From a virus (lineage: Duplodnaviria > Caudoviricetes), in IMG/VR virus record IMGVR_UViG_3300028610_000547, positions 1 through 25,482 of that record: 25,482 bases of DNA, one strand, 5' to 3'. Below, piece after piece: positions 4,307 to 21,835 of the stretch (its first letter is position 1; each line of letters begins with the position of its first letter). A model generated the notes under the pieces. That model made no database searches. It was given only the letters and a program-made list of their open reading frames with translations, and was not told where the DNA came from. The position numbers and the translations under genes are program-made.

Positions 4307-4582
4307 ATGGATCGAAGAATTGTACAATGCTTTGGCATTAAGAAGAAGCCTCATAAAGAGGATAAGGTTTGTATGAAAAAGTTTCTTTGGACGGCACGTG
4401 GTGCAGCCTCGGGTCACTTTGGTAGTAATGGAGCGCATGCTTGCCCAAACTGTGGCACCCTGCCTGATTTCCAGCACCCATATAATCAGTTCCTCGCAGG
4501 TCTGATAACTTATGAAAAGGCTGCGGAGATGATGCCAAACTTTAGGGAAGAGTTAAAGAAAAGAAATCTGGGAAAGAAGTAG
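4307..4582 (+). CDS. small zinc-ribbon-like protein
   Basis: AAGGAG RBS; two N-terminal Cys plus CPNC. Confidence 0.7.
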   Translation: MDRRIVQCFGIKKKPHKEDKVCMKKFLWTARGAASGHFGSNGAHACPNCGTLPDFQHPYNQFLAGLITYEKAAEMMPNFREELKKRNLGKK

Positions 4583-7815: not shown

Positions 7816-8352
7816 ATGGTTGACGGCAAGCAGTGGCATTCTTGGGTAATTAAACGCAACCGCTTGGACAACGTAGTGGAGTATATTAAGGAGAATTGCC
7901 CAGAAATAGACAAGTTTTTCTATCCATTTATTAAAAAGGAGTACCAAACTAAGAGGGGTAAGACTCGTATCAAGGATATGCCTCTTTACGAAGGTTATCT
8001 TTTCTTGCGATATCACGACCATCCTCAGGTATTCCACAAGCTTAGCCACTATCCTCAGGTTACCACCTACTGTGGTGCCGTTTCGGAACATGAAATCAAG
8101 CGGATGGAAGCTGCCCAGGGAAAACTTATCACTGAGCTAAAGGCCAGTAAGTATAAAAGAGGGGATGCGGTTATCCTCAAGGACGGGCCGTTTAAAGGCT
8201 TTGAAGGGAAAGTCTCTTCGGTCAGCCCTGATTTTGTAAAAGTCAGAATTACTGCCCAAATTCTTGGTTCCTCGGACCACGAGGTGGTTTATCCTGAGGA
8301 ACAACTAGAACGCAAGACTGTACTACAGAATACCAAAGTGCAAGACATCTAA
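7816..8352 (+). CDS. NusG/RfaH-family transcription antitermination factor
   Basis: NGN domain (PLYEGYLFL, VSEHEIKRM) plus KOW motif (GDAVILKDGPFKGFEGKV). Confidence 0.9.
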   Translation: MVDGKQWHSWVIKRNRLDNVVEYIKENCPEIDKFFYPFIKKEYQTKRGKTRIKDMPLYEGYLFLRYHDHPQVFHKLSHYPQVTTYCGAVSEHEIKRMEAAQGKLITELKASKYKRGDAVILKDGPFKGFEGKVSSVSPDFVKVRITAQILGSSDHEVVYPEEQLERKTVLQNTKVQDI

Positions 8353-9554: not shown

Positions 9555-11411
9555 TTGCAGAGCCTGCTTGATGATCCTGATTTTATAAATAGATCCGAAG
9601 AACTCTTAGAGTTCTATCGACAATATCCTGAAATCGCAGCCTTCGACCTTTTGAGAGTAGAATTAAGTCCAATTCAAAAGGTAGTCTTGAGGTCTATGTG
9701 GTTTCGGGACTATGTTATTGCGATCATGTGCCGTGGTTCTGGTAAGACTTTTCTCAACGCGGTCTTTGCTTGCCTGAAAGCTATGTTATATCCAGGCCAT
9801 CGAGTGGGGCTTCTGGCGCCGACTTTTCGTCAGAGTAAGTTCGTATTTGACGAATGTAGTAGAATCTATCAGCGGTCTCCGATTATGCGCGACGCGTGCG
9901 AACGTAAGCCCACTAACCAGTCTGATAATTGCTATATCAAATTTAAGGCCACTGGAACTAAAAACCCCTCCATGATTCAAGCCATCCCACTCGGAGATGG
10001 TACCAAGATCAGAGGTTCGCGTTTCTACACCATCCTCTGCGACGAATTCCCGCACATTCCTGAAGAGATCTTCAATATGGTCATCCGTCCTATGGCAGCT
10101 ACTGTAGCTGAGCCCATGGAGAATGTTCGGAAACTGGCCCGGCAGAAGGAGATGTTATCTAAGGGACTTATCACCCAAGAAGAGATAGACAAAGATACAG
10201 TTACTAACCAAATTATTATCACCTCATCTGGTTACTTCACGTTTAACCACATGTACAAGTTATATTGTGCTTACAAAGACGAAATGGAAAAGGGTAATGA
10301 TAAATATGCGGTATATCGAGTTCCGTATAATTTGCTACCCGACGGTTTTTTGGATCAGAAATCTATCGAAGCTGCCCAGAGAGAAATGTCTAGTCTTGAG
10401 TTCCGAATGGAGTATGAGGCAGCATTCATTCCTGATACAGATGCGTTCTACAAAGCTTCACTTTTAGAGGCATGTTCTAACACCGGCTTCTCTACACGGG
10501 TTGCGGGAGAGTACGAAAAGTCTTATTGTTTAGGTATAGATCCTGCTAGAAGCGAAGATTCTTTTGCTATCTGCGTCGCAGAACTAGGTGTACCCTCTAA
10601 GATCGTTCATGCTGTCGAAATTCAAAAGATGCCTTTCCCTCAGATGTCAGAACTTATCGAAGACCTCTGTGATGCTTTTAACGTACAATCAATATACATG
10701 GATGCGGGGGGCGGCGGATTAGCTATCAAAGACATCTTGGCTGAAAACAATCGCGCTCACCGAGCCGGAGCAATCCTGGACCCCAATGATGAAGTCCACC
10801 AGGCTAAGTCTGGAAGGCACATTCTTACGATGTGTAATTTTGGAACTGACTTCATTTCAGAGTCTAATTTTGCTGCCTTACGCCTGCTTGAGCATCGAGA
10901 TCTGCTTTTTCCGAGCATCCCTCGGAACGAAGATCCAACCCCTGCCCAGGAACAAGGTTGGCAGACGATTCAGATAATGAAGCAGCAGATGCAGATGATT
11001 GAGTTGAGTGAAACCCCCACCGGAAAGCAGCACTTTGATGTGCCCAAAGGAGAGGGGCACGGAAAGCAGAAGAAGGATTTGTACACCGCTTTCATGCTCG
11101 CTGCACGTTGTGTATATGATCATTTGTGGGCGGAAATGCTTCCCGAAAGTGTTATTCACCATGGTGGAGTTATACAGTCCAGAAATGTACTGCCAGGGGT
11201 TATGTCCGATGGCATGCCTGTTGGGGATATTCCGGACGCCCTCCGTGATAAATTGGAAATGGCACAAGACCCGGAAGGGTATAGACAAAGAATGTTAGCT
11301 CAAACTTTCAAAGGCAGAAAAGTGATAACCAGTTCTGCCGCAGTATTAAAACCCAAGAACAAAGGTAAGGTGCCCGGAAGAACGTCCAACAGGCCTGTAA
11401 ACAAGCAATAG
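9555..11411 (+). CDS. terL: terminase large subunit
   Basis: Q motif (LSPIQ), Walker A CRGSGKT, Walker B ILCDEF, coupling motif ITSS, RNase H-like LGIDPAR, YMDAGGGG and KKDL; TTG start uncertain. Confidence 0.93.
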   Translation: MQSLLDDPDFINRSEELLEFYRQYPEIAAFDLLRVELSPIQKVVLRSMWFRDYVIAIMCRGSGKTFLNAVFACLKAMLYPGHRVGLLAPTFRQSKFVFDECSRIYQRSPIMRDACERKPTNQSDNCYIKFKATGTKNPSMIQAIPLGDGTKIRGSRFYTILCDEFPHIPEEIFNMVIRPMAATVAEPMENVRKLARQKEMLSKGLITQEEIDKDTVTNQIIITSSGYFTFNHMYKLYCAYKDEMEKGNDKYAVYRVPYNLLPDGFLDQKSIEAAQREMSSLEFRMEYEAAFIPDTDAFYKASLLEACSNTGFSTRVAGEYEKSYCLGIDPARSEDSFAICVAELGVPSKIVHAVEIQKMPFPQMSELIEDLCDAFNVQSIYMDAGGGGLAIKDILAENNRAHRAGAILDPNDEVHQAKSGRHILTMCNFGTDFISESNFAALRLLEHRDLLFPSIPRNEDPTPAQEQGWQTIQIMKQQMQMIELSETPTGKQHFDVPKGEGHGKQKKDLYTAFMLAARCVYDHLWAEMLPESVIHHGGVIQSRNVLPGVMSDGMPVGDIPDALRDKLEMAQDPEGYRQRMLAQTFKGRKVITSSAAVLKPKNKGKVPGRTSNRPVNKQ

Positions 11412-11420
11412 GAGAGACGA

Positions 11421-13292
11421 ATGTCTAAAGAAGTAAAGGACAATATTAATGAGAATTTGGACAACTCCAAAGTTCTCTCCCACCAGGAAGTAAAGCCTGG
11501 TGTACACGAAATGGAAATAGATGTTGGCCCAAAAGGCAGACCTGCAGTTGAACTGGCTTATTTAGACCCCCAACGTGGGGATCAGAACCCTCTAAGATTC
11601 CATGAGGGTGGTAGGGTTATTACCCGAGACTTTACCCGTCGGGTAGACCTCGACCTCTTAGTTGGTAAGCCCTCGGTTACCAGGGCCAAGCCTGCGCAGA
11701 TCTTTCAGAGTGCTATTGATTTTTATAAGGCTAAGGGCCCGTACGGTACCTGGGTTGATACCCTTTCTAATTTTGCAGCCAAGGGATACAAGAATGATAT
11801 TGATGACGAAGATATCAAGCTTTTTTATGATACCTGGACGTCCGAAATTGCTTTTCAAGAGACCGTTGAGAAGATTTTCTTTGACTTCTTTAGAGTCGGA
11901 ATGGTCCGTACCTTCAAGCTTGTAGGTAAGTTTGATCCCAAGTTGAAGCCAGAAAATTTTGATGGTGCTGTAAGACGTAAGGCCCAAGCAAATCGCTTTG
12001 ACACTTCTGATCAGATGAAGAAGTTAATAGCGTATAGAGATGTTGCCGCCGCCAAAAAGATTTGGTCTAAGTCTTTTGTACCTCTTAAGTATACCCTCCT
12101 AAATCCCACACTCGTGGATATTAAAGGTTCCCTACTCTTTGACCAGACAGAAACCTTCCTAAAGCCAGAGGCTTTTAAGGAGATAGCAGCGCTGTTAAAA
12201 AACCCAGCTAAGGCTAGCCCAGAACAAAGGAAGTTTATAACTAGTCTGCCCCGAGACCTAAAAGATGCGATCAAGAAAAATAAGCCTGTTAAACTACCTC
12301 CTGAGTTGGTAGGTAAATGTGACTATCGTCGAATGGATTATGAGAGATATCCTCAGCCTAAGGCCGCGCGCATGTTTGACGATATGAATTACAAGGATGA
12401 ACTCAAGAAGGCAGACTATTCTACCTTAGATGGTATTACCAATTACATTCTTAAGATCACTATTGGTAATGACGAACACCCTGTAACCAGTCAAGCGGAG
12501 TTAGAGACAGTAGCTAGGCTGTTTGATACTGCAAGTAAGAGTTTTGATATTGTATGGAACCATACTCTTCAGGTTGAAAAGATTACTTTCCCTGAGATTT
12601 CTCAAATTTTAGGTGTTGATAAGTTTGAGCAGGTTAACGATGATCTGAGTCAGGCTATGGGAGTTACCCGAGCATTGGTAGATGGAAAACTTCAGGCTAA
12701 TGCCAAGTCCGTAGAAGCATCTCTTAAAGGTTTTGCTGAGGAAGTGAATTATGCCCGGCGCTGCGTAAAGAGATGGATAGATCATGAATATGAAGAAGTG
12801 GCTTTGGCGATGGGATTTAGTCGTTATCCCCAGGTCCGCTTCGACGAGAACGCTCTCAAGGATGAGATTATGATGATGAGCGTTATTCAGGGAATGATAG
12901 ATCGACGTATTCTGTCTTATGAGACTGGTATTGAGAAGCTGGGTATGGACTTCAGCAATGAGCTTGCTAACTTCATCCAAGAGAAGCCCTTGGTTCAAGA
13001 CGGCACCCTTGGTATTATTGGTTCGCCTTACAATCCAAAGGCTCTTCCCCCGCAGGGGCCCGTACCTACTCAGGACACCACACCTGGAGGTAAGCCTACT
13101 ACGGTTACCCAGAAGGATCTTAAGGATTTCCAGAAGAACATTACTGATCTGGTTACAAAGCAAGTTCAGAAGATTCAGAGAACCCCAGTGGGTACTCCGA
13201 GCGAGGGCCGTCCCCGAACAGGGGGTAAAGGTAAGCCTCGTCAGAAGTCCACAAAACCAAACACTAAGCCACGCCAGCCTAACAATAGTTAG
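11421..13292 (+). CDS. portal protein
   Basis: 623 aa immediately after TerL; helical core, I..LSYETGIEKLG near the C-terminus, Pro/Lys-rich tail with GRP. Confidence 0.8.
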   Translation: MSKEVKDNINENLDNSKVLSHQEVKPGVHEMEIDVGPKGRPAVELAYLDPQRGDQNPLRFHEGGRVITRDFTRRVDLDLLVGKPSVTRAKPAQIFQSAIDFYKAKGPYGTWVDTLSNFAAKGYKNDIDDEDIKLFYDTWTSEIAFQETVEKIFFDFFRVGMVRTFKLVGKFDPKLKPENFDGAVRRKAQANRFDTSDQMKKLIAYRDVAAAKKIWSKSFVPLKYTLLNPTLVDIKGSLLFDQTETFLKPEAFKEIAALLKNPAKASPEQRKFITSLPRDLKDAIKKNKPVKLPPELVGKCDYRRMDYERYPQPKAARMFDDMNYKDELKKADYSTLDGITNYILKITIGNDEHPVTSQAELETVARLFDTASKSFDIVWNHTLQVEKITFPEISQILGVDKFEQVNDDLSQAMGVTRALVDGKLQANAKSVEASLKGFAEEVNYARRCVKRWIDHEYEEVALAMGFSRYPQVRFDENALKDEIMMMSVIQGMIDRRILSYETGIEKLGMDFSNELANFIQEKPLVQDGTLGIIGSPYNPKALPPQGPVPTQDTTPGGKPTTVTQKDLKDFQKNITDLVTKQVQKIQRTPVGTPSEGRPRTGGKGKPRQKSTKPNTKPRQPNNS

Positions 13293-13324: not shown

Positions 13325-15676
13325 ATGACTGAAAAGAACGTAGACAAGAACGTTGACGTCCAGAGCTTTCTCGAAGAGTTGAGAGGGTTAGCTGTGGTCG
13401 TAGGCGAAGATTGTCCAGAAGGGCATCGCAAAGATCCGGGCAGCGGACGATGCTTGCCGATTGGACCTACCGACCATACCGCATTTACACGAAGTCTAAA
13501 CGTTGACTATGGTCCGGAGTGGAGGGGTGAAGTTGATAAGACTAATACCACCTTTGCCAGTTCGCAAGAGACAGCGGTTGACGCAGACGATATGGATGAA
13601 CCAGAGAGTTGTGCTGAAGGCACAACTTTTTCTTTTATCCAGAGACGATGTGTTTCTCTGGAAGACGCAGACAAGGAGAATGATGACGAATTCGCCATGA
13701 CTGAAGAAGGTGAATATATTGAAGATGCGAAAAACGGCCACGAAGAGGTTATTGCCCTAGATCCAGAGGGACGTAAGGATACTGTTAACTTTGAGTGTCC
13801 TACCAATATGTTCTTTGATCGTAAGTTGAGAGAGTGTATTCCGCTGAACAAGGATACTGTATTAGCATCCACTGATTTCAGCGACGAGTTTAAGCAGGCG
13901 GTGGCTACCTTTGCTAGGCTCGCAATGACTTCTCCAGACCCAGTGGATGGCCACAAGCATGTGGCAACGCTAGATATGGAGGGTAATGGGGTTACGTCCG
14001 TAGCAGGGCACATGCACCCGCACAGTCATGAGGTCAAGAAGTTCAATGTTGTTCCCCGTACAGAGACAGCGGGAGATATCACATATACTTCCCAGCACCC
14101 TGGAGTTGCTGTACCTGAGGAACATCGTGTAGAAAAGCTTGATGATTTCGGAAGCGACGAGACCGCAGCACCGCTCAAGGGCGGTCAGAGATCTGCTCTT
14201 CCCGATAGCGCCTTTGGCGTCCCCGGAAAGAGGAAGTTTCCTCTAGACACCTGCGCCCGCGTACGCAACGCGATGGCCCGCTTTAACCAAGGTAAGGGAC
14301 TAACCTCTGGTGAGAAGGCAACTCTTCGCCGGAAGATTATGGCCCGAGCTAAGGCTTGTAGCATAGAAGTTCAAAACTTTGGCAAGGCAGACACTGTTGA
14401 AGAGTTTGCCGCCGTGGTACAGGAGCTAATCACAATGGATAATAAGACAACTGAAGATAGAATTGAGACCTACCGGGCAGAAGCTCAGGGTCAAGGCCCC
14501 TGCCCTCCCGGTATGAATTGGGATTCCGCAGCCCTACGCTGCACTAAGGTTTCCGGATTTGTCAAAGAGATCGCAGCAAATGGACATGAGGATATCGTTG
14601 CGTTGCAGCCAGATGGGCGCAGAGACACAGTTGGGTTCAATTGCCCTTCAGGTTGGTTCTTTGATTTTACCAACCGGCGCTGCCTTCCGCTAGACCCTTC
14701 CCAAAAGCCGGGGTCTACCACGGATAAGGCTGCTGAACGAGACCTAACCGCTCAGCCTGAAGGACGCCCTGTTCGACTTCCTATTGACTGTCCTGCGGGC
14801 ACGATTTGGAATAAGGACAGAAACGTGTGCATTCCTCTAGACAGCAGCAAGAAGACTAAGTCTGCTGAAGAAGAGGAAGCTGCCCTACCAGACTTCATCA
14901 AGAAGATTCAGGAGAAGAAGAAGAACGGTAAGGACGGCGACGACAAGAATGGTAAGAAGAAGAAGGGATTCGTACCGTTTACCAAGAAGAGCAAGTCTGA
15001 AGAAGAAGATGGCGCCGTGCACCCTGGCACGACCACCACAAATGGCCCTGGCAACAAGGGAGGCCCCGGCTGTCCTGAAGGCCAGTTCATGAATCCCGTC
15101 ACTAAGAAGTGCATGCCTGGAAAGGGTGCCTTTAAGGGTAAGAGTACGCAGGAAGATGCAGATGCCAAGCCTCAGAATAGAGAAGGATTAACTCCTCCTC
15201 CTGCAGGGAAGGTACAGCACCCTACGGACTGCCCGCCCAATACTGCTTGGGACGCTAAGAGTAAGGTTTGCCGACCAATTGACTCTATGGACAAGGATCG
15301 ACCTTCCGGCGCAAGCCCTCAGAATCCTAAGTCCGTAGCGGATGAGCTTACAACTGCTCAGATCATTCAGGTCCTCGATGATATCATCAAGGGACTCGGC
15401 GAGCAGGAGAAGAGCAAGGTTCTTGCAAAGGAACTACCTAACGCGGCTTTCCCGCCTTCTCTAGTAAGTGACAGTCACCGTAGCCTCATGCATCACAAGT
15501 CGGATGTTGTAGATCCGTACGACACTGCTTCTGTAGATGTAGCTAGACTACGAAATTCTCTGTTCCGCGCAACCGCAGTCAAGGAATTCTCTGACAAAGC
15601 GATTGAGGACGGCATCGACCATCTTCTATTCCACGCCCGCGAAATCGTGGCGGAGAGAATTGAAAAAAAATCCTAA
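13325..15676 (+). CDS. modular Cys-repeat head-associated protein (783 aa; about 943 aa if the -1 frameshift is used)
   Basis: AGGAGG RBS; eight C-x12-C repeats, a His-rich module, an LPDSAFGVPGKRKFPL module (DUF6582-like from memory); lies between portal and protease. Confidence 0.8.
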   Translation: MTEKNVDKNVDVQSFLEELRGLAVVVGEDCPEGHRKDPGSGRCLPIGPTDHTAFTRSLNVDYGPEWRGEVDKTNTTFASSQETAVDADDMDEPESCAEGTTFSFIQRRCVSLEDADKENDDEFAMTEEGEYIEDAKNGHEEVIALDPEGRKDTVNFECPTNMFFDRKLRECIPLNKDTVLASTDFSDEFKQAVATFARLAMTSPDPVDGHKHVATLDMEGNGVTSVAGHMHPHSHEVKKFNVVPRTETAGDITYTSQHPGVAVPEEHRVEKLDDFGSDETAAPLKGGQRSALPDSAFGVPGKRKFPLDTCARVRNAMARFNQGKGLTSGEKATLRRKIMARAKACSIEVQNFGKADTVEEFAAVVQELITMDNKTTEDRIETYRAEAQGQGPCPPGMNWDSAALRCTKVSGFVKEIAANGHEDIVALQPDGRRDTVGFNCPSGWFFDFTNRRCLPLDPSQKPGSTTDKAAERDLTAQPEGRPVRLPIDCPAGTIWNKDRNVCIPLDSSKKTKSAEEEEAALPDFIKKIQEKKKNGKDGDDKNGKKKKGFVPFTKKSKSEEEDGAVHPGTTTTNGPGNKGGPGCPEGQFMNPVTKKCMPGKGAFKGKSTQEDADAKPQNREGLTPPPAGKVQHPTDCPPNTAWDAKSKVCRPIDSMDKDRPSGASPQNPKSVADELTTAQIIQVLDDIIKGLGEQEKSKVLAKELPNAAFPPSLVSDSHRSLMHHKSDVVDPYDTASVDVARLRNSLFRATAVKEFSDKAIEDGIDHLLFHAREIVAERIEKKS

Positions 15677-15728
15677 GCGGATGGACTGAAGAAGGTCAGA
15701 TAACTAATCCAGAGGAGTTTCATCCGCT
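15652..15728 (+). other. candidate -1 programmed ribosomal frameshift signal 1
   Basis: GGAG 15652-15655, heptamer A AAA AAA 15664-15670, 5-nt spacer, stem AGCGGATG (15676-15683) / CATCCGCT (15721-15728). Confidence 0.75.
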
Positions 15729-16155
15729 GTGCCAACCCCAGGAAGTCTTTGATCCTAAGTCTGGATCATGTATTCCCCTCGTTAATGTTGAGGGGGCTGA
15801 CCCCGTTGGTACATTGGAATGCCCCGATGGGTGGGTATTAGATGAAGAACTCAATATGTGCGTCCCTGCGAGTGCTATAGACCAGGCCTCCCATAACGGC
15901 ACTGATTTTACAGGCAGATTATCAGATGTGCCTAAAGAGTTGAGGCCTAAGAAGCCAAAAAAGAAGAAGCGGATCACAGCCACCGATCTGCTCAGAGAGA
16001 TTAATGAGAATGCAGCACCATTCAAACCAACAGATAAGATGGAACGTTGTATTCAAGATGTTAAATCTCGTTTGAGAAAGAGTAAGAAAACCTTTAAAGA
16101 CCAAAGCATTAAGAGTGCCGCGATAGCTATATGTAGATCACGACTAAAGCAATAA
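15670..16155 (+). CDS. -1 frame extension of the Cys-repeat protein (includes listed ORF 15814..16155)
   Basis: open from the slippery site; encodes CQPQEVFDPKSGSCIPL and CPDGWVLDEELNMCVPA; no ATG/GTG/TTG before 15814. Confidence 0.78.
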   Translation: MLSGWTEEGQITNPEEFHPLCQPQEVFDPKSGSCIPLVNVEGADPVGTLECPDGWVLDEELNMCVPASAIDQASHNGTDFTGRLSDVPKELRPKKPKKKKRITATDLLREINENAAPFKPTDKMERCIQDVKSRLRKSKKTFKDQSIKSAAIAICRSRLKQ

Positions 16156-16171
16156 GGGGAGGCTAAGGCCA

Positions 16172-16420
16172 ATGTGGGATTTCCTACAGCTAGTGTTCAA
16201 AGATTATGGCCTGCTGGCTCTTATTGAAGTAGTAGAAGTGGTCGTTATCGTGTATCTGTTTCGTTTGAATCAAAAGAAGCAGGATGAAATAGTTAAGCTC
16301 TACGAAAAAAGAGTTGAAGATGTTTCTGAGAGTAAGGAAGATTATGAAGAATTGGCTCACAAGCTTGACCAATCAATTGATCTTCTCATCAAGGTTTTTA
16401 GAAAGAACAATGGGGGATAG
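16172..16420 (+). CDS. small single-TM membrane protein, BhlA/UviB holin-like architecture
   Basis: GGAGG RBS; N-terminal TM segment followed by a charged coiled coil. Confidence 0.55.
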   Translation: MWDFLQLVFKDYGLLALIEVVEVVVIVYLFRLNQKKQDEIVKLYEKRVEDVSESKEDYEELAHKLDQSIDLLIKVFRKNNGG

Positions 16421-16427
16421 AAATCCA

Positions 16428-16601
16428 ATGCAAAACATCGAAACGATGGAAGCCCAAGTAGTAGAGCTTAAGCAGGAACAGAAGGCCTGCAAAGTAAAAA
16501 CTTTGAAGAATTTAGATAAGTTGTATAAGTTACTAAACGACAGTGATAAAAACTCAGAAGAGAAAGCAGTGGCAGTACCAGAACCCACTGCTCTAGTTTA
16601 G
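16428..16601 (+). CDS. small coiled-coil hypothetical protein
   Basis: GGGGGA upstream of ATG 16428; fills the gap before the protease; start uncertain. Confidence 0.55.
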   Translation: MQNIETMEAQVVELKQEQKACKVKTLKNLDKLYKLLNDSDKNSEEKAVAVPEPTALV

Positions 16602-16611
16602 GAGGAGAATA

Positions 16612-18006
16612 ATGGTAGAAGATAATAAGGTTAGGGTATACGCGCCTATCCAGGTCCAGGAGGAAGTGGAATCAGCCGCTCTAGAGAAGGCGTCTGTCCT
16701 ATCTTTTCCCGAGGAAAAACAGGGAGATCTTCAGTATATTCGTTCTATTCTAGTTTCAGCAGGGACTAATAAGAACGGAGCCCATTTTCTCCCCTCCGAG
16801 ATGATGAGAGCCCATAATACCGTCGTCAATAAAGCCATTGACATTGAACATGCCGAAGATAAAGTAATTGGACACATTTATGAATGCGCCTTTCTGTTCA
16901 AGGATGGGGAGCAGTTTGACCCCACAAAGATTATGGCAGAGTTCGAGGAAACCGCTCGAGATCCAGACAGTTTGGATATAGATATCTTGGCCGCAGGTAT
17001 TATCCACAAGATGCGTTTCCCTGAATTAGCAGAAGAAATCTCAGGTGGGGATTGGAAGGTAAGCATGGAGTGTTACTTCAAGGATTTCGACATTAAGGTC
17101 GGAGAACAGATTATTACTAGAGATGAAGCCCAGTCGTTGGGCTACAATCCTGATGATCTTGTGGGCGGTTTTGTTAAAGTGATGGCGGGCCAGAAAGCCT
17201 TAGGTAAGCATTTTGTTTCTAGAGTTCTACGAAACATTACCTTCAGTGGGATGGGAATCGTAAAGAACCCTGCCAATCCTCACTCCATTATCATGGAGAC
17301 TGCGTCTCATCGAGAGCAAATGGAAAGGGGTGAGCAAGTTGTGGATCTAGAACAGATAGATAATTTACGAGGACATAAAGTTGAACTTTCTTCCAGCAAG
17401 GAAGAAATACCCCAGGAAGAAATTGCAGCCCAAGTTAAAGTGATATCCGAAGAGGGAGATATGGAAGTACAAGACCAGATCTATGTAGAGTTGGACAAGG
17501 AAACTGGTGGAATTAAAAGAGTCTTAACTGTTGGAGGCAAGGAGGATGCAGCTCTACGTTGGACAGGCCCCGGTATTGGTGGTCCTGGATCAATATCCTC
17601 CTTCCCAGACAGTGTTTGTAAGAGCTTCAAAAAGAGAGTTACTAAGTTTAATGCGCTTGACCAGTCAGAAGGTCAGGTCGTACATGAGCACTGGTGTGCT
17701 CTATTTGAAGAGGCTTGTCCCGTTATTGGTGCCACTTCAAAGGCACCTGAGTGTTTAAGGAATGCCAGGAATAGAACTACTCGGGATGAGGAAGACAATA
17801 CTCTTACCAAGACGGTGAGAGAACATGTTGATGATGCCCCGGGAAATACATTCGTAACTGTCCTGAACACCCCAGTCTTGTCCAAGGACGCAGCAAGCGT
17901 TCATTCTGAGAGACATGATCAGGTAACCAGGATCCGATCAGAAGCAGAGGAACTTAGAAATTCTCTTCGATCTTTTGTTGCGGCCGAAAAAAAAACTTCA
18001 GAATAA
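16612..18006 (+). CDS. prohead maturation protease (464 aa; about 570 aa if the -1 frameshift is used)
   Basis: NKNGAHF, DIEH...VIGHI (His), KVSMEC (Ser), FSGMGIVKNPA motifs of the HK97/assemblin-fold proteases; located between portal and scaffold. Confidence 0.8.
   Translation: MVEDNKVRVYAPIQVQEEVESAALEKASVLSFPEEKQGDLQYIRSILVSAGTNKNGAHFLPSEMMRAHNTVVNKAIDIEHAEDKVIGHIYECAFLFKDGEQFDPTKIMAEFEETARDPDSLDIDILAAGIIHKMRFPELAEEISGGDWKVSMECYFKDFDIKVGEQIITRDEAQSLGYNPDDLVGGFVKVMAGQKALGKHFVSRVLRNITFSGMGIVKNPANPHSIIMETASHREQMERGEQVVDLEQIDNLRGHKVELSSSKEEIPQEEIAAQVKVISEEGDMEVQDQIYVELDKETGGIKRVLTVGGKEDAALRWTGPGIGGPGSISSFPDSVCKSFKKRVTKFNALDQSEGQVVHEHWCALFEEACPVIGATSKAPECLRNARNRTTRDEEDNTLTKTVREHVDDAPGNTFVTVLNTPVLSKDAASVHSERHDQVTRIRSEAEELRNSLRSFVAAEKKTSE
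17986..17995 (+). other. candidate -1 frameshift or slippage site 2 (G followed by A9)
   Basis: GAA AAA AAA ACT three codons before the stop; -1 frame open through to 18323. Confidence 0.65.
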
Positions 18007-18335: not shown

Positions 18336-18548
18336 ATGGCAAAGCCAGATATCCAAGCGACTTTCATCACTGCTTCTGGAACCTTATTTCGTCTCAAGGG
18401 AAAGCTAGGTCTGGACGACCTGGGCGCTGTTACCGGCCCCGATCTCGTAGAACGAAACTTTACTAGTGACGTAGCTGCAGGTAACGGGGGTGTGGAAGTT
18501 GGTGAGTTTTATCATCTCAATGGTGACCTACAGATTAAGTTTACTTAA
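18336..18548 (+). CDS. 70-aa putative virion protein, paralog A
   Basis: TAAGGAG RBS; MAKPDIQATFITASGTLFR; C-terminal GGVEVGEFYH motif. Confidence 0.8.
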   Translation: MAKPDIQATFITASGTLFRLKGKLGLDDLGAVTGPDLVERNFTSDVAAGNGGVEVGEFYHLNGDLQIKFT

Positions 18549-18960: not shown

Positions 18961-19017
18961 TTATAAAGATCAGCTGATTTTTACAAGGAAAAATCAGAAT
19001 AAGGAGGAATGCTAATC

Positions 19018-19230
19018 ATGGCAAAGCCAGATATTCAGAGAACTTTCATCACCGCATCTGGAACCTTATTCCGTGATAAAGGTAAGTTGGGATTGGAAGA
19101 TAAGGGACCAATTACTGGTCTAGCGCTCACCGACCTAGATTTTTCTAACGATTCTAATGCCGCCAGTGGTGGTGTTGCCGTTGGAGAACTTTATCACAAT
19201 TCCGGTGATGTTAGAATTAGAATTGTATAA
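19018..19230 (+). CDS. 70-aa putative virion protein, paralog B
   Basis: TAAGGAGG RBS; MAKPDIQRTFITASGTLFR; GGVAVGELYH; start 19018 chosen by alignment to paralog A. Confidence 0.8.
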   Translation: MAKPDIQRTFITASGTLFRDKGKLGLEDKGPITGLALTDLDFSNDSNAASGGVAVGELYHNSGDVRIRIV

Positions 19231-19366
19231 TTAATGTGTTCACTACATTTAGTGAAGGAAACGGCTACGGAGTAGATGAGAGGAAGTGTGACGCAAAGAG
19301 CACACTCGTTTGAAATCGTCGGGGGACGACTATCAAACTAAAATCCTGATAAGGAGGAAAACCGAT

Positions 19367-20248
19367 ATGAGCGAATTCAACAAAGAAGAGTTCAATGCAG
19401 CTGTACAAGCTGAGGTCGAGAGACTTCTTTCCTCCAGAGAAGAGGCACAGGCTCGTGTAGAGGCTGAGTCCGCTCTCAAAGAGGCTAAGGAAACCTTCGA
19501 AACCCTACGCGCATCCCTAGAGGCAAAGGATGCTAAGCTTAAGGAATACGAAGATGCCCTTGCTAATCTCGACAGCTCTGAGGCAACTGATGCCGAGGTC
19601 GCCGCTAACGAGGCAATCGTGGAGCTAGAGAAAGAACTCGAAACATGGAAACAACGTGCTGAGGTGGCCCAAGCTGCCTTAGATACCCTCGCTCGCGAAG
19701 AGACCGCTGCTAGCCGAATGGCTGAGCTTGCTGAGTCCGGAGTATCTCTGGATGAGGAAGCCGCTGAGGCACAGTACTCAAAGGTCCGAGACATGTCGGA
19801 TGAGGACTTCGCGTCCTATAAGAGCGAGCTTGTTGCTCTAAAGAGCAAGTACGCCTCCGCTTCAGAAGAAGATGGAGATGAAGAGATCGAGGTTGCAGAA
19901 CTATCCGCTCAGGAAATCGCTGAGATTTCTAAGAGCCTTGGTTGTGACCCTGCCGACTCCAAATGTATTTCTCTCGTCAACGAGGTAGCACAAAAGGTAG
20001 CAGAAGTTAGCAATAACCGACGCACCGAAGCTACAAAGGAAGAGACCCCAGAGGATAACTCTGAGGAAGCTTCTAAGGAGACGACAGAAGAGCCAAAGAA
20101 GGAGACCGCTTCTCAGAAGATGTCTTTGGGAGAGGCTATTAGTCGATCTATGGATCAGGAAATTCGCCCCAGCGCGAGCCTGAAGGAAGAGATGACCCAA
20201 GCATGGGAGGATTACTACGCTGCCAAGCGCGGCGAAAACAAGTCCTAA
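19367..20248 (+). CDS. capsid scaffolding protein
   Basis: very acidic Glu/Ala coiled coil upstream of the decoration and capsid genes; TAAGGAGG RBS supports ATG 19367 over TTG 19310. Confidence 0.75.
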   Translation: MSEFNKEEFNAAVQAEVERLLSSREEAQARVEAESALKEAKETFETLRASLEAKDAKLKEYEDALANLDSSEATDAEVAANEAIVELEKELETWKQRAEVAQAALDTLAREETAASRMAELAESGVSLDEEAAEAQYSKVRDMSDEDFASYKSELVALKSKYASASEEDGDEEIEVAELSAQEIAEISKSLGCDPADSKCISLVNEVAQKVAEVSNNRRTEATKEETPEDNSEEASKETTEEPKKETASQKMSLGEAISRSMDQEIRPSASLKEEMTQAWEDYYAAKRGENKS

Positions 20249-20767: not shown

Positions 20768-21835
20768 ATGGACAAGCAAAAGCTTGCTGAATTGTTTCAC
20801 GCAACTGCTGCATTCGACTCTCCTGAGGGCGTCGAAGCATATAAGGCCTTCGCACAGGCACTAACGGTGCCCATTCTCCAGGAAATTAGAGACGCATCTA
20901 TTATGCGGCAGCTCTTTGCTGTTGAGCGGCTCGCCCCTGGTGCTCAGGCCGTATATCCGGTTGCTGACGATTTCGAGGTCCCAGTATTCGTACTGCCCGG
21001 TCTCGGATATATCGCACAGAACTTCATCGAAGGCGTTGGTGAGGAAGTATATGTCCCTACCTTCTCCATTTCCGTATCTGCGGATTGGAAGGTAACTTAC
21101 GCCCGAGATTCGCGAATCGACATTCCCGAGAGGGCTGCTCGAAACGCTGCACGCGCAATTGCTGACTTCGAGGAAGAGTCGGGTTGGCGAGTAATCGTTC
21201 CTGGTGGAACGACCAACTTCGCTGGTCAGGGTCTAATCGGATCCCGTAACGCGCCTATTTTCCAGGTTCCTGCCGGTGCTACCGGTGAGAAGTTCCTTTC
21301 TAAGGAGCTAATCAACCTGATGATGGTCGGTATGAAGAGAGTTCGCCGATCCCTAACTGATCTCTATATTTCCCCTGAAGATGCCGCTGACGTACGTGAG
21401 TGGACTGACACTCAGGTTGACCCGGTCACTCGCCGAGAGATTTTCCAGGCTGCTGGTATGGGTCGAATTTGGAACATCAATCTACATGAAGTATTCCAGC
21501 TTGGTGCTACTGGTCGATTTAACATCAACCAGAACGGCGCTACTTTTGGTATCTTCCAGGTTGATGGCGGCGGAGATTTCAATGACTATACACCTACTAA
21601 CGTTAACACTGTTGACGCTAATGGTAACGTCACTACCGCTGGTGAGACTCAGGTATGGGGATTCGATCTTTCCGTTAACGACTCCCTCGTTATGCCTATT
21701 CGAAAGGAATATGAGGCACACGACGATCCAACATTACTCCGACAGCAGAAGCAAGGTTTCTTCGGCTGGGAGGAAGTTGGTTTCGCACTTCTCGATTCTC
21801 GAATGGTTCAACTGGGCGTTATCGACCGATCGTAA
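20768..21835 (+). CDS. major capsid protein (HK97-fold expected)
   Basis: 355 aa, perfect RBS, biased codon usage, C-terminal GFFGWEEVGFALLD strand, followed by terminators. Confidence 0.85.
   Translation: MDKQKLAELFHATAAFDSPEGVEAYKAFAQALTVPILQEIRDASIMRQLFAVERLAPGAQAVYPVADDFEVPVFVLPGLGYIAQNFIEGVGEEVYVPTFSISVSADWKVTYARDSRIDIPERAARNAARAIADFEEESGWRVIVPGGTTNFAGQGLIGSRNAPIFQVPAGATGEKFLSKELINLMMVGMKRVRRSLTDLYISPEDAADVREWTDTQVDPVTRREIFQAAGMGRIWNINLHEVFQLGATGRFNINQNGATFGIFQVDGGGDFNDYTPTNVNTVDANGNVTTAGETQVWGFDLSVNDSLVMPIRKEYEAHDDPTLLRQQKQGFFGWEEVGFALLDSRMVQLGVIDRS

Follow-up and report, generated by a model that had tools for sequence, protein, structure and literature searches.

A conserved and probably programmed -1 frameshift site at the end of a cysteine-loop gene in the head module of uncultured jumbo phages

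Does the gene between the portal and the likely protease genes of an uncultured phage end at its stop codon, or does part of its translation run on in another frame? The question is raised by a window of 25,482 nucleotides (the whole stretch of DNA analysed, from a Caudoviricetes record in IMG/VR) that holds a phage head module with terminase, portal, ORF0, likely protease, scaffold-like and capsid genes (Table 1). ORF0 ends GAA AAA AAA TCC TAA, with a run of eight A residues at 15663–15670, and the -1 frame is open from there to 16155. Because the -1 frame has a TGA immediately upstream of this stretch, the crossover is confined to 10 nt, within which A_AAA_AAA lies. The original prediction of a programmed -1 frameshift was built on these features, and all of them match the sequence. 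A -1 slip at A_AAA_AAA is predicted to give a product of 782 + 161 = 943 amino acids. Programmed -1 ribosomal frameshifting at the end of ORF0 is very probably the correct reading, with a heptamer at all the homologous junctions, no A9 or indel, no fusion and no conserved start for the downstream part.

Table 1. Coordinates of the features of the ORF0 locus in the window.
Feature	Position	Strand	Remarks
ORF0, 783 aa	13325..15676	+	eight C-x12-C loops, DUF6582 domain (aa 292-350), conserved helical C-terminal domain ending EKKS
Slippery heptamer A_AAA_AAA	15664..15670	+	0-frame phase, one codon before stop
0-frame stop TAA	15674..15676	+	overlaps base of 3' stem
-1 frame TGA	15661..15663	+	limits crossover window
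Predicted 3' stimulatory stem	15676..15728	+	15676-15685 with 15719-15728, 5-nt spacer, inner hairpin near 15686-15699
SD-like GGAG	15652..15655	+	9 nt before P-site codon; possible local modulator
-1 frame extension, 161 aa added	15664..16155	+	two C-x12-C loops (15730, 15820), basic linker, conserved C-terminal two-Cys helical motif
Large terminase	9555..11411	+	phrog_2, E 8e-29
Portal gene	11421..13292	+	phrog_2739, E 7e-9
Likely prohead protease	16612..18006	+	position before scaffold-like and capsid genes; name inferred
Major capsid protein	20768..21835	+	phrog_2522, E 1.6e-12

The break in frame might also come from an assembly error, or from a recent mutation that shifted the frame of a formerly continuous gene. 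Homopolymer runs are typical error sites, and the data are contigs. Contigs (not raw reads) from four public runs were compared with positions 15000–16700. One contig piece across 15409–16339 is identical to the window and may be its own source. Two contig pieces from another study are also ungapped across the slip site and carry 53 and 79 substitutions. None of the contigs compared has a ninth A, and no indel in the A run was seen over 15600–15800 in the contigs that cover the site. In addition, the break is present at all of 50 homologous junctions with a median nucleotide identity of 59% upstream of the slip site. In-frame fusions in homologues, named in the original prediction as evidence against a shift, were found neither among the 50 loci nor among 103 homologous proteins, and a weak search for longer proteins carrying the extension in frame also found none. 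A sequencing artefact or a fresh mutation is already effectively refuted and can be given next to no probability.

The comparative evidence comes from 226 loci, 76 of which have the C-terminal domain and give 50 distinct junctions. A canonical heptamer occupies the last two codon positions, in phase, at all 50, as A_AAA_AAA in 37 and G_GGA_AAA in 13, and every junction runs on in the -1 frame into a homologous extension. Elsewhere in the same ORFs such heptamers occur at 74 of 37,879 codon positions (0.2%). Judged from these alignments the agreement is not due to chance, with counts that come from related sequences and are not independent events. The conserved A run and frame break expected of homologous phage loci have therefore been found. 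A 51st junction, in L228, has G_GGA_AAA, and the crossover window is 13 nt or less in 12 of the 50 junctions. At the protein level, 100 of the 103 homologues end in KK-x, GK-x or KK; the homologue P0019 ends ...KKRLRPR instead, which may reflect a change of frame before the slip site is reached. A quick tree, built from 48 of the 50 rows after two short ones were dropped, has well-supported branches that force at least three changes between A_AAA_AAA and G_GGA_AAA, which suggests that the slip site has been swapped between two re-pairable forms rather than decaying. Elsewhere in the window, the ORF at 4307–4582 ends G_GGA_AAG AAG TAG (4570–4582), a heptamer of the type used at the lambda G/GT slip site, G_GGA_AAG. 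It was rejected as a second shift site; its -1 frame closes after a few codons and the match is probably chance.

Codon usage around the site is also unusual for these genes. Lysine codons in the ORF bodies are AAG in 80% of cases (2616/3287), and the A-site codon is AAA, the last base of the heptamer being A, at all 50 junctions. Inside the ORFs, A_AAA_AAA is not seen at any KK pair (0 of 563), and G_GGA_AAA is seen at 4 of 355 GK pairs. All 19 exact A7 runs begin at codon position 3, the sole phase that yields the heptamer, and none of the A8 runs, present at 18 of 50 junctions, has its first A at codon position 1, where no heptamer would result. These phases bear on another explanation, in which slippage of RNA polymerase within the A run puts one extra A into some of the mRNAs, and standard translation of these gives the long protein. 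The A8 run of this genome and of the other A8 junctions would suit such slippage, and sections of PMC5009743 describe Thermus thermophilus, with two lysine tRNAs, as using it for dnaX; these phages also carry tRNA-Lys(CTT). No A run is longer than eight, however, and 13 of the 50 junctions have only 4–6 A after GGG. In addition, all the A7 and G3 runs lie in the codon phase required by tRNA re-pairing, which a polymerase would not require, and the predicted stem 3' of the site lies at ribosomal spacing. Polymerase slippage is improbable as the general explanation, and in genomes with A8, this one included, it could play a part. Tandem -1 slippage by the ribosome fits the data because of the phase lock, the interchange of GGG and AAA, and the 3' spacing.

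Downstream of the heptamer, the original prediction had placed an 8-bp extendable stem at a distance of 5 nt. The stem is present (AGCGGATG/CATCCGCT, 10 bp counting G-U), but against shuffled sequences it is ordinary on its own, with z of -1.0 for 15671–15740, -0.5 for 100 nt, and -2.4 only when the sequence scored is cut down to the stem itself; its support is comparative. A predicted stem of -8 kcal/mol or better starting 3–9 nt after the heptamer is found at 36 of 49 junctions versus 7.7% of 1658 control positions, and at -12 kcal/mol the figures are 21 of 49 versus 0.8%. In one subgroup GCGGRTGG pairs with His-Pro-Leu codons, and in another, which has a 15-nt deletion, GCACTGAGGG pairs with Pro-Gln-Cys codons; the two pairing registers in two subgroups suggest that the predicted helix is held at the same distance from the heptamer. 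Covariation is thin: the main helix has 1 two-sided change in A5 and 2 in A4, of which one comes from L019, a row that fits poorly. The near stem is absent from an 11-member subgroup (L026, L035, L100, L174–L179, L182 and L183), which has a charged insert of 20–50 codons directly after the slip site and a highly conserved 6-bp hairpin (GGGATC/GGTCYC) about 13 nt downstream that shows no compensatory change. The stem is also weak in L037 and L105. In the G_GGA_AAA subgroup (L010, L016, L023, L024, L162, L169 and L187) part of the loop could pair, over about 8 nt, with sequence lying 3' of the stem and so might form a pseudoknot. This candidate helix is paired in 68.5% of cells, mostly of that subgroup, and is not claimed here, having been picked after the data were viewed and pairing poorly in this genome.

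Upstream of the heptamer, the GGAG reported in the original prediction is present in this genome; it is not a conserved element, being missing in 27 of 50 junctions. SD-like elements of -5 kcal/mol or better occur at the other 23, against a background of 17%. The known spacing of SD-like stimulators of -1 frameshifting is given in parts of PMC5009743 as 9–14 nt upstream, a range into which the GGAG of this genome falls.

The events at the site may be pictured as follows. A minority of ribosomes would slip back one base at the heptamer, giving a 943-aa form beside the 783-aa form, as both tRNAs (Lys/Lys here, Gly/Lys in the G_GGA_AAA relatives) shift their pairing upstream by one base during a pause of the ribosome at the 3' stem 5–6 nt downstream. 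At sub-stoichiometric level, the longer product would bring in a further pair of Cys loops together with a C-terminal module that varies, being a basic helix in most relatives and a Dps-like domain in two. The A-site codon has likely been kept as AAA because a phage or host tRNA-Lys(CUU) would read AAG firmly. Both complete relatives have a tRNA-Lys(CTT), and one also has TTT in the regions covered; the retention of AAA is attributed here to the presence of this tRNA. According to the relevant sections of PMC5009743, A_AAA_AAG is the shifty form in Escherichia coli owing to its single lysine tRNA, a second lysine tRNA should pair tightly with AAG, and A_AAA_AAA is much less shifty than A_AAA_AAG in E. 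coli. By the last of these points, the efficiency of the shift here could be low.

The extension was said in the original prediction to hold a ninth copy of the C-x12-C repeat, at 15730. The repeat is there, but it is not a single copy, as a second loop follows at 15820, beside the eight of ORF0. Among 48 complete junctions the extension is 71–292 aa long, and the conserved two-Cys helical motif is found at the C-terminal end of 38. In the block of 26 codons upstream of the first standard start of this genome, 65% of the mismatches fall at third positions of the -1 frame, and none of 49 such blocks has a -1 frame stop. This pattern indicates that the extension is coding in the -1 frame before any standard start is reached. 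Profile searches of the extension gave only weak CBM_14 matches, with Ferritin in two relatives, and no match to an Ig-like domain. The Ferritin/Dps-like domain ends the extension in L016 (5096–5980) and L105 (6592–7347) and lies in frame within ORF0 of P0067 (aa 504–643), and the protein thus exchanges modules. The extension may be a slot for swapped cargo, including the Dps-like domain.

The downstream ORF could also be a separate gene, started by coupled re-initiation or at a non-standard start (ATC, ATA, CTG 15727 or TTG 15814), in which case the heptamer would be a by-product. An SD-like match of -7.9 kcal/mol goes with CTG 15727 in this genome, where an ATC also lies 4 nt before the 0-frame stop and TTG 15814 opens an ORF of 113 aa. 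Nevertheless, ATG, GTG and TTG are all missing ahead of the first Cys in 32 of the 50 junctions, and the remainder have no position for one in common, while a CTG with a strong SD-like match occurs in only 4 of 50. An independent start such as CTG 15727, which the original prediction had set out as evidence against a shift, is therefore not conserved. The codons upstream of CTG and TTG are under coding constraint, and a separate gene would leave unexplained why phase-locked AAA is kept against the AAG bias. Independent initiation is very improbable. Readthrough of the stop codon can be considered as well, since the stem comes directly after it. The next 0-frame stop follows after 8 codons in this genome, however, the conserved protein lies in the -1 frame, and the stop itself differs among the 50 junctions (TAA 36, TAG 12, TGA 2), which makes readthrough almost inconceivable. 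Programmed -1 frameshifting joins an in-phase heptamer to a conserved coding -1 frame without its own start, and on sequence grounds the ORF0 site is very probably a member of this class.

Less can be said of the protein itself. The Cys loops match CBM_14 at profile positions 27–48 of 53 only and have two Cys per unit, whereas the complete CBM_14 (peritrophin-A chitin-binding) domain has six Cys in about 53 aa. As this is a half-domain match and no single stretch passes alone, identity with CBM_14 has been rejected, and so has an Ntox11 Pfam match that fell below the cut-off on a Lys-rich stretch. The AlphaFold model of ORF0, made from a 34-row alignment, has low confidence (pLDDT 55, pTM 0.24), and fold searches with it in the PDB and BFVD gave nothing at E<=0.001. 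Look-ups in the ESM Atlas for two C-terminal domains gave no match at 0.9, and pairwise comparison of the DUF6582 domain with the C-terminal domain showed no significant likeness. ORFs that share just DUF6582 have matches to head-maturation-protease families in 12 of 28 cases by our count, company that supports a head role for ORF0.

The genomic setting is consistent with such a role. Among 80 loci selected by capsid and surveyed, the ORF0 gene with its extension was found in 15, with capsid identity of at least 86%, and it lies between the portal and likely protease genes in all 12 close-clade loci with both flanks in view. It is present in none of 22 sister-clade loci (capsid identity 61–70%, both flanks in view), and therefore appears to be a clade-specific accessory gene. 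The label "head protein" of the original prediction is to be softened to a likely one, drawn from gene position and the company of DUF6582, and the gene is accessory. As an accessory protein associated with the head, the ORF0 product likely serves as a scaffold or carries cargo. The likely protease is named from its position; in PHROG its ORF matches just two families, phrog_16389, of unknown function, and phrog_27806, which bears a methyltransferase label. A NusG/KOW antiterminator-like gene at 7816–8352 lies just upstream of the terminase-head operon. In the interval between the protease and scaffold-like genes, two short paralogous ORFs (18336–18548 and 19009–19230, with a MAKPDIQ-like start) flank an ORF of 156 aa.

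An E-x-A-(A/S) motif recurs in 16612–18006, in the scaffold-like ORF at 19310–20248 and in 13325–16155, and could be a protease cleavage site. Relative to what composition predicts, its frequency is about 3–4.5 times as high among ORF0 homologues and their extensions and about 9 times as high within the likely protease, compared with 1.5 times in background ORFs. Terminase has it at 2.2 times (one match), and the 160-aa gene that precedes the capsid gene lacks it. Three patterns were tried and the result is a lead only; the ORF0 product is possibly cut by the prohead protease.

The source is an uncultured jumbo phage. Two complete relatives are about 297 kb, with 29–32 tRNA matches and a sigma-70 domain in each, and so suggest a bacterial host. 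In GTDB, long matches to the ORF0 gene occur only in two archaeal MAG bins (L227 and L228), a placement that is likely misbinning. The runs with the gene are subsurface and marine sediment metagenomes, and no relative was matched among cultured phage records. A fuller scheme can be offered as a tentative and rather doubtful proposal: the frameshift would be a copy-number dial on a modular head-cargo polyprotein, whose Cys-loop units the protease would cut at E-x-A-(A/S), and whose minor form would load exchangeable cargo (basic helix or Dps/ferritin-like) into the heads of these ~300-kb sediment phages, the AAA signal having been retuned because phage tRNA-Lys(CUU) silences AAG slippage.

Several known systems resemble this locus in part. 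Extension of virion proteins at the C-terminus by -1 frameshifting is described, in the sections concerned of PMC5009743, for gene 10A/10B of T7 and T3 and for coat genes of Lactobacillus phage A2 and Listeria phages A118 and A500. As in these phages, the slip is near the end of a structural-module gene, a short major and a longer minor product are predicted, and the extension carries a portable domain. Unlike them, the gene here is neither capsid nor tail but encodes an unannotated Cys-loop/DUF6582 protein, and the added part, in contrast to Ig-like extensions, consists of further Cys loops together with a module that varies and is Dps-like in 2 of 48. With the capsid gene separate at 20768, ORF0 is not the major capsid, major tail or tail chaperone gene. 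The same source, in its sections on recoding in phages, also covers the G/GT tail-assembly chaperone frameshift of lambda (PMC5009743). Like that site, the ORF0 site is an X_XXY_YYZ heptamer conserved across diverged phages with interchangeable forms; unlike it, the site is in a head module and not upstream of a tape-measure gene, and its last base is always A, not G.

The original prediction had likened the layout to the dnaX/IS3 family, and E. coli dnaX and IS3/IS911 are presented as -1 frameshift cassettes in portions of PMC5009743. The resemblance holds for the Lys-Lys heptamer, the 3' stem or three-way junction (a predicted stem here) and, in this genome, an SD-like sequence 9–14 nt upstream. 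It does not extend to the A_AAA_AAG site, which is never seen in this family in place of A_AAA_AAA or G_GGA_AAA, nor to a conserved SD. The dnaX frameshift shortens its product, whereas here the predicted shift lengthens it. CsoS2A/2B of the carboxysome, reported in part of PMC5009743 as made by a truncating -1 frameshift, is likewise a long protein with two isoforms (predicted here) tied to an icosahedral shell and its cargo. The analogy is of logic only, no sequence relationship is claimed, and the shift truncates in CsoS2. Overall, ORF0 is not a dnaX-type cassette, not a capsid or tail gene and not an Ig extension.

The recoding mechanism is textbook and the gene family is undescribed. The surprise is moderate because the mechanism itself is textbook; literature searches, with most subscription papers outside their scope, found no paper on the family. 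Standard gene calling truncates it, as 100 of the 103 database proteins end at the slip site. The 50 natural variants make a ready panel on which it may be asked which heptamers work with a CUU lysine tRNA, the last codon being always AAA here, and how far the 3' structure can vary. In the phages themselves, the finding would extend -1 frameshifting to a family other than capsid, tail or chaperone.
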